Positions 15,666 to 57,850 of a stretch of 64,000 nt of DNA are shown one piece after another (within the stretch, counting starts at the first letter, position 1; every line of letters starts with the position of its first letter). A program made the position numbers and the translations under genes. The stretch is taken from positions 21,018,001-21,082,000 of the forward strand of contig OX597819.1 in the NCBI GenBank assembly GCA_951406725.2. The letters run 5' to 3'. The DNA comes from Octopus vulgaris. Its lineage: Eukaryota. The notes below the pieces were generated by a model. That model did no database searches and was not told the origin of the DNA. It was given only the letters and a program-made list of their open reading frames with translations.

Positions 15666-15910
15666 ACATACAAAAACCGTTAGATTTACTTCAATATTTA
15701 AATTTAATTTGTGTCGAAATATTTTCGTCGCTCTGAAACCGTGATCTGTTCACTGACAAAACTTTAGCACGAAGTTTTTTCATTGAACTGGTCACGGTCT
15801 CAAAGTGACGAAAATATTTCGACTCAAATTAAATTTAAATGATGAAGAGAATCTAACGGTTTTTGTATGTTTTCAAATGACTTATAAACGTCTTCCACGC
15901 TGCAATTGTT
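15666..15910. mobile_element. Palindromic PLE terminal-repeat element with inverted HHR pair and 3' tail
   Basis: Inverted arms 15666-15764 / 15772-15870, then a unique 40-bp tail ending at (TA)n. Confidence 0.8.
15712..15758 (-). ncRNA. Hammerhead motif, G3:C8 core variant
   Basis: Minus strand tgtca GTGAACA gatcac-ggtttcaga-gcgac GAAA atat TT cgaca; the mirror arm gives perfect stem II gtcac/gtgac but a decayed core. Confidence 0.6.
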
Positions 15911-15922
15911 TATATATATATA

Positions 15923-16135
15923 GTTAATCCAAACAAGAAAACACAAAAAAACACAGCAACGTGAGGACGTGGAACAAATAAAGTATTATTGGACGCTCAG
16001 GAAAGAAGGGAAGGAGGGTTTAACGTTTCGAGCGGAGCTCTTCGTCGGAAACAAAGGAGAAGGAAAGATCCCGAGAAGGGAAGACAGAGGAAAAAAATTG
16101 CTGGCGGTGCTCACTAGGTCACATGTTGAAAGCAT
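15923..16135 (-). mobile_element. PLE terminal-repeat fragment carrying an HHR
   Basis: Abuts (TA)n; homologous to 63685-63846 (+); contains the motif at 16018-16052. Confidence 0.75.
16018..16052 (-). ncRNA. Minimal hammerhead motif (C4 variant)
   Basis: gttt CCGACGA a gagc-tcc-gctc GAAA cg TT aaac; stems I and II perfect, palindromic AACGTT stem III. Confidence 0.8.
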
Positions 16136-16179
16136 ATATATATCAAAGTTTGGTACAACGACAGCTCTTTCAAGTGTCG

Positions 16180-16355
16180 AGTGAACTCGAGTACATGGAC
16201 CTTAGTGCCGATCCGGTGCTTATCCTATTGACACTGAAATGATAAAAGGCAAAATTAAATTCAGCGGAACTTGACCTCAAAGTGTAAAGTCGTGCGAAAT
16301 GCCCCGCTTAGCATTTTGGCCTGCGTGCTAACGATTCTGCCAGATCATCGCCTTA
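16180..16355 (-). mobile_element. Degenerate SINE family B
   Basis: cgtgctaacgattctgccagatcatcgcc is the reverse complement of the family head. Confidence 0.7.
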
Positions 16356-17354
16356 AAGCTCGTAAAGATATGCCATATATAATGTAGAGCAGGCGATTCT
16401 TCACAAACGTGAAAACCACTTAGCTCGAATGCTTTTCATTGCACGTCTCCAAGATAATGTGAGAACAAGGAAATTAGTACAACTTAAACAATTTGTAGCC
16501 TGCAAGTTACAGAAAATATCTGTGTATAGTTGCTTAATCCGGCAATATAAAATATCTAGGCCTGGTTTGGTTTTCTCAAGTCCATTATACGAGATCCATA
16601 GTGCATAAGTGACCGAAGTGATATCATTCCTCTAAACCCGACGGTGAACTGCGAAAAGTTCAAGGCCAGTAATTTTTCGGGTAGGAGAGTTGACTGCATC
16701 AAACCCAATGTCTGTCTGTCGGTTTATGTTGTGCAACGCGATGGGGAGAAAGCTAGAGTCAACCTCGGCAGGATTTGATCTCCGGAAGCAAAAACATTAA
16801 ATACATTTTCTGGAAGAAACACAAGATTACGTGATCTTGGATGGCAGATTTTGACTGTTTATCTATCGTTGAGTTCTGTGTTTAAATAACCAGATAAGGG
16901 AATTTATAAGCTTCTTGAGAGGGTTAAATGGAAGTTAGCTTTAACATGAGATGCGAAAACATCAAAACACTATAAATTTTATACAGGACACGTTGAAGAT
17001 TAATATTTGTATAGCTAAAGTAGAATTAGAAGAATTTTTGCGAAGAGTAACTATAAAGCGTCAAGAATTTAATAAACAAATTAAATTTGCTAAATTTGTT
17101 TTTGGTTTTTCATTGTATTCAAACAAAACACGGATGTATGTTTTTTTTATATATTTATTTCAAGAAGAGGCACATTGAAATCGCTGAAAAATAAGCGAAG
17201 CACGTTTGTTTTCCATAACACGTATACACACACACACTTACAAACGCAAATACAACCATTCGTTTATTATATCTGTGTGTATGAATTTTTGTGCGTGTGT
17301 TAGGAGACCAACAAGACATTTATAGAAAAGCAGTTCCGTTGAAGCCACTCGAGC

Positions 17355-17778
17355 ACTCTTACTCCTTTACTCTTTTACTTGTTTCAGTCATTTGACTGCC
17401 TGCGGCCATGCTGGAGCAGCGCCTTTAATCGAGCAACTCGACCCCGAGACTTATTCTTTTGTAAGCCAAGTACTCATGCTATCGGTCTCTCTTGCCGAAC
17501 CGCTAAGTAACGGGGACATAAACTCACCAGCATCGGTTGTCAAGCAATGCTAGGGGGACAAACACAGACACACAAACACACACACGCATATATATATATG
17601 TATATATATAAACATATATACGACGGGCTTCTTTCAGTTTCCGTCTACCAAATCCACTCACAAGGCTTTGGTCGGCCTGAGGCTATAGTAGAAGACACTT
17701 GCCCAAGGTGCCACGCAGTGGGACTGAACTCGGTACCATGTGGTTGGTAAACAAGCTACTTACCACACAGCCACTCCT
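17355..17778 (-). mobile_element. SINE family A, full length
   Basis: Reverse complement of 6324-6748, with short tandem tail repeats. Confidence 0.9.
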
Positions 17779-18089
17779 ATCTTACAAGTGGTTCTCAGCA
17801 ACGTACTTACGAACTGCTTTGAAACAAATTTACAAGGGTAGAATGACGCAGTTGGGTTGATGCGGCCCATCAAAATATATCATATAATATTTGTCACAAG
17901 ACTAAACAAAATTAATGAAAATGACTTTGATAGTGAACTACGGAACGATGAAAGAATAAGTCAGAAACATGTTGTTATGCTCAGAATTGATTTCATAGTA
18001 TACATACAAATATACATATAAATATACACATGCATACACAAATATAAATATCTATATATGATTTAATGCATACAGGATTTACACATGTG

Positions 18090-54844: not shown

Positions 54845-55120
54845 AGTGGTCGTATACCGTCAACTCAATGTGACAGCACCGTAAGGGAATTACACCACCG
54901 CCATTTAACCCTAGGAAACATCGACGTCTCCTGTCGGCTTTAGAAATTCTCGAAACATATCTAATGGGGCACAGAGAGTATGTCAATAGCCAGCTTGAGG
55001 AGATGTCTTCCTGGGGCTACAAGCTACAGTAGCATCCACCCTTAGTGGTTAGCCACATTTATGTGACAAATATACTTCACGATGCCGTGCAGCTACTGTT
55101 CATACCTCGCTCAGAGACTT
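54845..55120 (+). mobile_element. Single-arm copy of the 39.3-kb element family
   Basis: caatagccagcttgaggagatgtcttcctggggctacaagcta...atacctcgctcaga matches 39570-39690. Confidence 0.75.
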
Positions 55121-55331
55121 ATATATATTCATTTATTCTTCTAGACTTTTCAGACATAAGGCGGTGTTGTTGCTGAAGATGTTTCTCACAAATACACACC
55201 CATTCAAATGAGAGCACCCTACATATATTACTGGTTTCCGACTTAAATACTTTATCATCATATTTCAGTGTTGCCATCTCGCCCCCTTAAATACCTTCCA
55301 TTTCTTATGTTACTCTACGAATTAGAATACC

Positions 55332-55563
55332 TATTTCTTTACTACCCACAAGGTGCTAAACACAGAGGGCTCGAACAAGGACAGACAAACGGATTAAGTC
55401 GATTATATCGACCCCAGTGTGTAACTGGTACTTATTTAATCGACCTCGAAAGGATGAAAGGCAAAGTCGACCTCGGCGGAATTTGAACTCAGAACGTAGC
55501 GGCTGACGAAATACGGCTACGCATTTCGCCCGGCGTGCTAACGTTTCTGCCAGCTCGCCGCCT
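55332..55563 (-). mobile_element. SINE family B, full length with 10-bp TSD
   Basis: Reverse complement of 63026-63256; ttagaatacc at 55322 and 55568. Confidence 0.9.
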
Positions 55564-56569
55564 TGAGTTAGAATACCCATTGGCTCTGTCATTTAAGCAT
55601 CACCTTCTTTGTTCATGCATGAGATACATTTGCATTCCATTTTGGTTTCTAATAGCATCAATATTTTCTTCTATTCTTTAAACATATCCATATTTGCATT
55701 TTCTACTCATTATTAAGTACATATTTACCAACAGAGTTTTATATTTGGATTGGCACGCTTTATGATAGAATTTCTGTCTGTAATCAAATAATATTTCCTG
55801 ACTAAGTACACATTCTGTTTTATTTTTTATGGCATTTGCATCAATATCAAAGCATCTATATTTGCTTAGAAGAGCTTATGGGTGTATGTTTACATATATA
55901 TATATATATATATATATATATATATATATATATATAGATAGATAGATAGATAGATAGATAGATAGATAGATAGATAGATAGATAGATACATAGATACATA
56001 GATAGATAGAAAGATGTATATGGCTGTTTATGTATATTTATAGTATATTTATATGCGCGTATCTCCTTGTATTTATGGATCAATACATATACATTCATGC
56101 ATACACACACACATATACAGGTGTATGTATGTATGTATGTATGTATGTATGTATGTATGTATGAAGGAAATGTAATGTAAATTACCTTATATATCCGTCG
56201 GAAGTTTTCAAATGAAACCAATTTAATTTAGAAACTACGAAGGAGCTATAAAGTGATGCGCAATCACACATGTCTGAACGCATTGCATCTAATAGCAGAA
56301 ACAGCTGCAAGCTAATGCAGTTGATTCCTGCTTCCCTATCATTTATTTAATCTCTTATTACACTCGGTATTCGTCTGACGCTTCATTCTTAGACGTATAT
56401 ACTGGGTTCTACACCAGCTTATACCGCTATGCCTTAGCATAATCACAAACTCACACGTAGATAAATAGATTTGTATGTATCTATAGTACACGTGCACGCA
56501 CATATATTGGTGCATGTATATATATATATATATATATATATATATATATATATATATATATATATATAA

Positions 56570-57445
56570 ATTAGAGAAGAACCACTATGTAGCATTTCAA
56601 CAATGAAATAATGATATAATTAAATTATACCACATAGAAAACATTAAATATACGATAAAACATATACTACTAATTGAGTAAAGTACAAAATAATAAATAA
56701 ATGGCATATAATTGGTAAAAAGACTACACGTGTTTCGTGGCTATATTTTTAAACTGATAACAGTAAAATCAATTCAATTTAAATATAGTCACTCTTTATG
56801 TCCATGATAAAAAGAATAAAATATACAAATAAGTAAGAAAATATAAATATATTTAAAAATACGTAATTTTACAATAAAATTCAAAAATGCTGTATCTGCC
56901 GCGTGAGCTTATATACTATCACCCACATAATCAAGTGCTGCCTTAAAATACCTGCAAGATACTCCCGTGAGATATATCATTGTTTCCAAAAACACACTTA
57001 CGATGCAATCCACAGGAGCATATTTTTCTCATCGCAATATAAGCAACACACTAGAATAAGAAGTTATTCACACTTTTAAAAATTGACATCAATTGATACA
57101 CCATACTAGAAGAAGCAGCACAAGCCAGATGTTTTCGTATGGGACAGAGAACAGATATTATGCCGTAAAGTAGAGATCAACAAGCCAATCGATGTAGATG
57201 CGTAAAAAAATAAATATACAATGGAAAAATATCTATTGAGAACTAATGAAGAACTTACTGCGCTTAGTATCCTAGTCGTAAATTTTCATTTTTACCAATT
57301 ATTTTAAATGAAACAACGAATTTCCATGAAACCCAAAATGATTCGCATTCTGAAAATAAATTCGATTAGCAGAACAGTGAAAACTACTAAAACATTCTTC
57401 GGATTCTTGGTTTGAGGTTTATTTGTGAATATTTTCTCACTGCCT
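56570..57445. mobile_element. PLE-derived fragment with decayed HHR on the minus strand (56721-56803)
   Basis: ggac ATAAAGA gtgactatattt...aaatatagccac GAAA cacgtg TA gtct; flanked by (TA)n. Confidence 0.6.
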
Positions 57446-57500
57446 ATATATATATATATATATATATATATATATATATATATATATATATATATATATA

Positions 57501-57850
57501 AAGGAAATGAAGAAAATGCTGACAAAATAATTTTAGTAAGGGGGAGTGTATTTAATTAGGTGAAAGTTCTTTTTACCGGTTGCGCATTTGTTATGCTTAT
57601 CAAAAATATTGTCTTAAGAGAGATAGAGTTCCTTTCTGATAGATTTTTTTTCTCTTACAAGAGAAAAAAATCTATCAGAAAGGAACTCTATCTCTCTTAA
57701 AAAATATCTTTTGATAAGCATAACAAATGCGCAACCGGTATAAAGAACTTTCACCTAATTAAATACACTCTCCCTTACTTAAATTATTTTGTCAGCATTT
57801 ATTTTATTTCCTTTTTTTATATATCACAACTCGTGTTCCACATCTCCTTT
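57501..57850. mobile_element. 313-bp near-perfect palindrome with inverted HHR-like pair and tail
   Basis: Arms 57501-57656 / 57659-57813; (TA)n on both sides. Confidence 0.9.
57569..57745. ncRNA. Pair of hammerhead-like motifs, U3:A8 plus C13 variant
   Basis: TTGATAA gcat-aacaa-atgc GCAA ccgg TA in both arms (minus 57569-57606 with ttt/aaa stem I; plus 57707-57745). Confidence 0.65.

Follow-up and report, generated by a model that had tools for sequence, protein, structure and literature searches.

Minimal hammerhead motifs with four Watson-Crick forms of the 3:8 tertiary pair in retroelement families of Octopus vulgaris

We analysed a stretch of 64,000 nucleotides (nt) from Octopus vulgaris (GenBank assembly GCA_951406725.2, contig OX597819.1, positions 21,018,001 to 21,082,000 of the forward strand; hereafter the window, numbered over its whole length) that holds five hammerhead-like motifs, together with the repeat families to which these motifs belong. 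Judged by their sequence, the motifs are minimal type I hammerheads from the 3' ends of Penelope-like retroelements (PLEs). We find that the cores in which the canonical tertiary pair C3:G8 is replaced by A3:U8, G3:C8 or U3:A8 are traits of whole families and do not reflect the decay of single copies. We propose that the master elements of these families have probably been selected for a hammerhead that reaches its active fold, most likely for cutting tandem transcripts after nucleotide N17, and that swaps of the 3:8 pair are tolerated under this selection and mismatches are not.

Unusual cores are shared by whole families

The families are named by the window position of their motif (f15, f23, f28, f52 and f57). 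In the searched genome (2.8 Gb in 227 contigs), each of the five sites has more than 1,000 first-look candidates, 1832 in the case of f15. Thirty loci were fetched per family, best matches first, so that the sample leans toward query-like copies; family column counts refer to aligned copies across all fetched DNA. Positions 3 and 8 are complementary in all five families: C3:G8 is present in 52/53 copies of f23 and 33/35 of f28, A3:U8 in 36/37 of f52, G3:C8 in 47/53 of f15 and U3:A8 in 54/54 of f57. The first-pass annotation, which had reported the variant cores, was open to the objection that the family consensus is CUGANGA and the odd cores have decayed from it. We find C3:G8 in 0/37 copies of f52, 0/53 of f15 and 0/54 of f57, and because nearly all copies of each family share its unusual core, each odd core is a trait of its family. 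The two f15 copies found in 400 kb of unselected DNA likewise have G3:C8.

The remainder of the core is also conserved. U4, G5, A6, N7, A9, G12, A13, A14, the A15.1-U16.1 pair and H17 are present at 76-100% per position in f52, an older relative of f52, f15 and f23 (21-53 copies), and the hammerhead core positions are likewise conserved in a second clade with G3:C8. The older relative has A3:U8 in 21/21 copies and flanks about 68% identical to those of f52; N7 and loop II differ between the two, as does one stem I pair, with compensation; the core is unchanged. Compensated changes are also found among f28 subfamilies, in distal stem II, along with three forms of the stem III loop.

Positions 3 and 8 change together

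Genome-wide pattern searches extend these observations. The counts that follow are of copies and not of independent events, the controls are reversed patterns, and base pairs were counted by hand in the first 100 matches in genome order. A G3..C8 pattern with the common 6-nt palindrome has 112 matches versus 3 in the control and reveals the second G3:C8 group. The same pattern with any base other than C at position 3 and any base at position 8 has 7,239 matches versus 57; of the first 100, 94 are Watson-Crick (73 U:A, 20 A:U and one G:C), and the others are four U.G, one A.A and one A.G. The expectation that strict CUGANGA searches would miss such families is thus borne out, with at least 7,239 motifs missed. 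A pattern tied to the flanking sequences of the second G:C group and leaving positions 3 and 8 free has 220 matches versus 0 in the control, and its first 100 comprise 54 A:U, 38 G:C, two G.U and six mismatches, all six one step from G:C. One PLE clade therefore holds both G3:C8 and A3:U8 subfamilies with common flanks.

Two further observations concern these families. With G3, C17 is found in 0 of 100 listed matches and U17 in 53/53 f15 copies. The notion of base 3 avoiding a pair with N17 would account for G3; U3, often accompanied by A17, runs counter to it, and as few lineages are involved we do not use it. In a U:A family, the first 100 of 118 copies comprise 94 U:A, three U.G, two C.A and one A:U. 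At one locus (L267; G000:C1:7828030-7828310), two inverted arms differ at both position 3 and position 8, one being U:A and the other A:U; the lone A:U arm could be chance or local misalignment.

To place these changes we used a DNA tree of the endonuclease region with 21 natural rows, 19 of which have a read core; seven of the eight fetched A:U copies of the mixed G:C/A:U clade are without this region and were excluded. A protein tree of about 150 residues had not resolved f52 and the older A:U groups. The DNA tree has three changes at position 3, three at position 8 and three of the pair as a whole, those at 3 sharing their branches with those at 8. Position 7 changes six times, positions 4, 6 and 9 never, and position 5 once, in a decayed copy. 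The swap branches are the stem of f52 and its older relative (support 92/94), the G:C clade's stem (100/99) and a nested A:U subfamily (98/93), the last of which has support of 100/98 in a second tree, made from the 3' untranslated stretch with the ribozyme columns removed and 8/13 rows kept. The A:U rows as one clade are rejected (p-AU 5e-8) and the G:C rows as one clade weakly rejected (0.038); A:U and G:C together as one clade are neither supported nor rejected (p-AU 0.096). The chance that three position-8 changes hit the branches of the position-3 changes is roughly 1e-4, and no fixed single 3:8 mismatch is found on the tree. A single walk from C:G to U:A to A:U to G:C was considered and is not supported, as G:C is ancestral to A:U in the mixed clade.

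Covariation of 3:8, which the first-pass annotation had suggested looking for, is thus found both between subfamilies of one PLE clade and on the tree. Its broader proposal of selection in the ancestor of each family holds in part: the swaps preserve pairing, and they lie on three branches of a PLE tree rather than in the ancestor of each family, most U3:A8 families having inherited their state.

Motifs of the window

The letters and coordinates of all five cores are as first annotated. The window has a GC content of about 35% and is rich in (TA)n. The hammerhead-related features are as follows.

15666..15870, no strand: inverted-repeat insertion with two arms, of the apparently short, non-coding PLE-type element f15; 85% self-complementary over 205 nt
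15708..15760, minus strand: minimal hammerhead with G3:C8 core GTGAACA at 15753-15747 (f15) and palindromic stem III
15783..15789, plus strand: core of the f15 mirror arm, decayed (G3 to U, A9 to U)
23548..23769, no strand: inverted-repeat insertion of the canonical C3:G8 minimal-hammerhead family f23
23685-23691 (CTGATGA), plus strand, and 23637-23631, minus strand: f23 cores, both copies decayed
28169-28486: inverted partner of the f28 copy
28830..28892, plus strand: type I hammerhead with C3:G8 core CTGACGA at 28835-28841 (f28) and 3-bp stem III
52498..52530, plus strand: intact minimal hammerhead with A3:U8 core ATGAATA at 52502-52508 (f52)
57500..57857, no strand: young insertion in (TA)n with inverted repeats, formed by a PLE 3' end (f57) and an inverted copy of it
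57711..57740, plus strand: hammerhead-derived motif with U3:A8 core TTGATAA at 57711-57717 (f57) and A13C at 57732
57603-57597, minus strand: f57 mirror core

The sole intact copy in the window is that at 52502, which has a 2-bp stem II with G10.1-C11.1, a palindromic 6-nt stem III and a predicted cut after C17 (52526). The copy at 15753 has an extra G after A9 and U as N17 (15717), and has lost the first stem I pair (1.1) and one stem II pair. The copy at 23685 is missing C11.1 and one stem I pair. In the f28 family, two A residues face each other at the base of stem II instead of the usual G10.1-C11.1, and the f57 motif reads G12-C13-A14 with an in-register stem I of 2 bp; with A13C, the motif at 57711 is likely impaired. 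Four of the five window copies lie inside inverted repeats of 205-510 aligned nt, two of these being decayed, and a type I descriptor that allows any base at positions 3 and 8 recovers from the window the 52502 motif and one chance-like match. The annotation of each core as correctly placed between stems I and II stands for four of five at the family level and for one of five window copies. Across the genome, most copies, like four of the five here, are truncated, decayed or hairpin-locked and likely inactive passengers. Separately, window 52789-52830 has a canonical CUGAUGA core and a 12-nt palindromic stem III with poor stems I and II, and is probably a decayed hammerhead of another family.

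The presence of all four Watson-Crick versions of the 3:8 pair in one window, the observation from which this work started, is real and has no meaning beyond insertion density. Exact A:U motifs of the non-C3 pattern number about 1,450 (20% of 7,239), or 0.03 per 64 kb, and f15 occurs about once per 200 kb. By rough inference, such a window is uncommon and expected in some of about 44,000 windows. A functional cluster was considered and rejected, the five elements being independent insertions of common families; their co-occurrence is a coincidence without function.

At the family level, stem structure ranges from weak to textbook. f52 has a stem I of 4-6 bp and a stem II of 2 bp, and stems I and II of f57 are weak. 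Typical f15 copies are textbook minimal hammerheads, with a 7-bp stem I, an extra base after A9, a 5-bp stem II closed by G10.1-C11.1, and U17, and in the second G:C clade stem I has 6-9 bp in 10/18 fetched copies. Stem III is a 6-nt palindrome in f52, f15 and f57 and a 4-nt palindrome in f23. When two copies are folded together (ViennaRNA), the minimum fold is the hammerhead for three loci (L229 with the older A3:U8, L200 with U3:A8 and L283 with A3:U8) and nearly so for a fourth (L251 with G3:C8); for the window copy of f52 it is not. A scan with Rfam gives no hammerhead among the best 150 of 243 matches (E up to 1), canonical C3:G8 copies included. A strict descriptor has 74 matches in 632 kb of DNA enriched for these families versus 0.2 per shuffle, and a looser one has 12 in 400 kb of unselected DNA versus 1.8 per shuffle. 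The unselected sample also contains two further U3:A8 motifs of other families (L200:95 and L207:7469), of which one has a stem I of 6 bp and is predicted to fold cleanly as a dimer.

Host elements

The intact motif of the window stands 280 nt behind the stop codon of a PLE.

49864..52220, plus strand: broken Penelope-like open reading frame (ORF) in three frames (49864-50466, 50549-51001 and 51066-52220), with a reverse transcriptase (RT)-like part, a C-x4-C-x2-C linker and, at the C terminus, a GIY-YIG endonuclease

The endonuclease matches Pfam GIY-YIG (PF01541, E 6.6e-07); the RT pieces have no Pfam match. The linker is of the CX2-5CxxC type, which would fit the Neptune/Nematis clade, and (TA)n flanks are seen; the tree was made without reference PLEs. 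Relatives of this ORF occur genome-wide at 76-93%, and a young sister family with a 753-aa frame at 62% identity. Among the 30 f52 loci, 12 carry the PLE ORF. The second example is f57, which is the 3' end of another PLE: the parent GIY-YIG frame lies upstream on the same strand in L060, L166 and L172, and sister PLE families keep A13 at the same place. In the second G:C/A:U clade, the PLE endonuclease end is present in 5/6 upstream pieces of G:C copies and 1/8 of A:U copies. The PLE link is thereby established for f52, f57 and this clade. A search with the Pfam GIY-YIG domain also leads to PLEs whose motif, likewise in the 3' position, has U3:A8 and keeps A13; one of them is a young family with a 781-aa frame, in which U:A is present in 15/15.

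For f15, f23 and f28 no parent ORF was found, a PLE protein match being present in 0, 1 and 1 of 30 loci, respectively, and we infer that these are PLE families too. A PLE beside one f28 copy (L123) was considered as the f28 parent and rejected, as it belongs to another element with its own U:A motif. Truncation is variable in f52, f23 and f28. In f15, the tail is on one arm only in 17/22 two-armed loci and on both arms in 0. As 5' truncation, an inverted 5' copy and a tail on one end only are a hallmark of PLE insertion (PMC8557442), this one-arm tail gives f15 a PLE insertion signature. No ORF is present in f15 copies, which begin some 15 nt ahead of stem I; non-palindromic copies (L066, L075, L090, L191 and L209) start at about this place, and two-armed copies fold back there. 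By its appearance, f15 is a short PLE-type element that is non-autonomous and whose 5' end is fixed directly at the hammerhead.

Several observations concern related elements. Many identical 753-aa frames are found in a very young PLE family (L221-L223; G000:C4:153221040-153223200 and two others), whose motif escaped the descriptors used here. The f52 3' end (window 52150-52640) is covered by contigs of runs X1, X5, X16 and X19, which have four organism labels, suggesting that the family is common to related organisms; there are no variants at 52502 or 52507 among the 40 listed of 82 variant rows. Window 58518-58876 holds a second, decayed PLE endonuclease fragment, 37% identical to the 51066-52220 frame and 50% to the f57 parent, and window 23803-24646 and 41690-42463 hold broken RT pieces of non-LTR (long terminal repeat) retrotransposons, with an RVT_1 match at 24242-24643 and no Pfam match at 42030-42404.

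Relation to known hammerheads

Swapped 3:8 pairs were reportedly tested in vitro by Przybilski and Hammann in 2007 and by Nelson and Uhlenbeck in 2008. Among natural hammerheads, those described here resemble the minimal hammerhead ribozymes (min-HHR) of metazoan PLEs described by Cervera and De la Pena (2014, PMC4209133), which are type I with a palindromic short stem III and G10.1-C11.1, often have an extra base after A9, lie at the PLE 3' end, and occur mostly in truncated copies and in inverted pairs 100-700 bp apart. The same paper reports a U3-A8 variant in Schistosoma mansoni with about 1,300 matches, and U3-A8 is also seen in a Saccoglossus row. The rows of its 56-motif alignment that we compared have CUGA or UUGA cores only; here, in contrast, there are multi-copy families with fixed A3:U8 and with fixed G3:C8, and a great many cores are non-C3. 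Natural C3-G8 covariation, as found here, was described by Perreault et al. (2011, PMC3088659), whose section 8, unlike our families, names only U3-A8 and whose hammerheads are not in PLEs. The text of its supplement gave no matches for A3-U8 or G3-C8; its figures could hold variants. In structural class and dimer cleavage, our motifs are also like the variant hammerheads with reduced stem III near PLEs of Lünse, Weinberg and Breaker (2017), as cited in PMC6765202.

The natural occurrence of U3-A8 is thus already known (PMC3088659; PMC4209133). We found no literature report of natural A3-U8 or G3-C8 families; the main survey (Lünse 2017) lay outside our search and could contain them. These pairs are not reported in the portions consulted of PMC10085705, PMC6155905 and PMC8495972, and a 2026 animal-retrozyme preprint has nothing relevant. 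With priority uncertain, what the present sequences appear to add is families with A3:U8 and G3:C8 and natural covariation of a tertiary pair of the catalytic core.

Engineered swaps bear on the same pair. In the anole Poseidon PLE, either single change at 3 or 8 abolishes cleavage and the G3:C8 swap (C3G/G8C) partly restores it (PMC11167929), as it does in a mutant scan (PMC9901934) and as our proposal expects of a pair. These swaps were made in the laboratory, and A3:U8 was not rescued in the scan; here both pairs are found in natural amplified lineages.

Alternative explanations

A number of observations weigh against the proposal that master elements were selected for an active hammerhead fold. 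The covariation consists of three events only, the deep branches of the tree are weak, three U:A tips (L151, L123 and L167) are read from single copies, and the tree has no C3:G8 element, so that the step from C:G to U:A is not placed. Within families, core variability is slightly below that of other columns (2.1% vs 3.1% in f52, 3.6% vs 4.6% in f15), a modest conservation that is as expected because copies decay after insertion. C13 is present in 54/54 f57 copies and in the three ORF-linked copies L060, L166 and L172, and this family, with A13C fixed, spread recently, its copies being 99% identical. The youngest 753-aa family, sister of f52, has U3:A8 with an extra A after A14, and the 781-aa family has an A-U stem I of 3-4 bp. 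Monomer folds of the short A:U motifs are not hammerheads, and in predicted context folds the core of the four window copies within inverted repeats pairs to the opposite arm. In a relaxed census of 1.04 Mb of DNA, 14 multi-copy clusters comprise seven C:G, two U:A, one A:U, one G:C and three non-Watson-Crick, of which two are weak U.U matches within the f28 element, the third being a tandem repeat of a single locus. There is also a small U3.G8 subfamily (L269 and L270; C1:21474845 and 34574028), with three copies in the first 100 of 7,239, possibly an intermediate between C:G and U:A; here stem I is followed by one additional U before position 3. From experiment, insertion of the anole PLE in vitro proceeds without need of cleavage and no reads ended at the cut site (PMC11167929), and a full double-mutant scan of one type III hammerhead rescued only the G:C swap, which suggests that A3:U8 may be slow (PMC9901934).

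Three other explanations have to be considered. The fold, including the 3:8 pair, could be selected as a binding site of the RT-endonuclease or as a dimerisation site, with cleavage slow or incidental. The anole experiments, in which insertion was cleavage-independent and used uncut RNA and cleavage appeared only with protein (PMC11167929), are in keeping with this, as are the poor cutting of minimal PLE hammerheads in vitro (PMC4209133) and the continued spread of f57 with A13C, which shows that amplification does not in every family depend on an intact core. What is conserved, though, is the catalytic set (U4, G5, A6, A9, G12, A14, A15.1-U16.1 and a base other than G at 17), with loops, N7 and stems varying freely, and the active conformation contains the 3:8 pair (PMC3884650). 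We consider a purely binding role unlikely, and the argument from pair-preserving changes to selection for catalysis would apply to the fixed and covarying cores and is weakened by the amplification of f57.

It is also conceivable that the ribozymes are relics and that three lineage-level double changes came out as Watson-Crick pairs as a result of chance, of local template misalignment or of short interfamily conversion. The small number of swap events fits this, and several young families have weak or altered motifs. The lone A:U copy in the U:A family, in a context of repeated short A/T words, indicates that a double change can appear in a single copy, and the A:U core of the mixed clade is the same as that of the older f52 relative. 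Against these points, drift should favour single changes over double ones, and no fixed single mismatch is found on the tree or among the listed subfamilies; the rough chance given above is before counting the Watson-Crick outcome; a conversion tract would need to be about 6 nt, because both flanks match the host subfamily; and stem I too shows compensated changes. This explanation is in our judgement quite improbable. Finally, the motifs could be pattern matches in AT-rich palindromic repeats, with odd cores decayed from CUGANGA copy by copy, as the failure of four of the five window copies, all in long inverted repeats, to match the strict descriptor might suggest. This is hard to credit: the absence of C3:G8 from the f52, f15 and f57 copies refutes decay for the families, matches exceed controls 37- to 127-fold, and the motifs stand at the 3' PLE position known for hammerheads.

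Proposed mechanism and implications

Under the proposal of selection for an active fold, two motif copies carried by a tandem PLE transcript would base-pair via their palindromic stem III, the 3:8 pair would form, as C3-G8 does in the active hammerhead fold (PMC3884650), placing the 2'-OH of nucleotide 8, and the RNA would be cut after N17. Cutting would probably be slow or helped by the element's protein; PLE minimal hammerheads are described as acting as dimers with low activity (PMC4209133; review PMC6765202), and cleavage of the anole PLE needs the element's protein (PMC11167929). If only position 3 or only position 8 of a master mutated, cleavage would be lost and offspring would be few until the other position changed too, and compensation might be easiest through G.U wobble steps. 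More tentatively, and with some doubt, we suggest that one PLE radiation has walked the 3:8 pair through every Watson-Crick state (U:A to A:U, U:A to G:C and G:C to A:U, with C:G in other families), that A3:U8 and G3:C8 cut RNA, and that neither is yet known from nature. If true, the 3:8 pair would for the first time be proven phylogenetically from natural covariation, and there would be evidence of in vivo selection on PLE hammerhead cleavage.

PLE hammerheads cut poorly in vitro (PMC4209133), their cleavage could be dispensed with for insertion in vitro (PMC11167929), and a passenger role has been suggested for them (PMC8557442). In evolutionary terms, compensated change of a pair that belongs to the active fold is evidence of the fold's importance to the element. 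The octopus genome offers matched natural pairs, in the G3:C8 and A3:U8 subfamilies with the same flanks, and an A13C lineage, for a direct kinetic test. Lastly, that CUGANGA-based searches miss thousands of motifs in this genome bears on reports of PLE groups lacking hammerheads.

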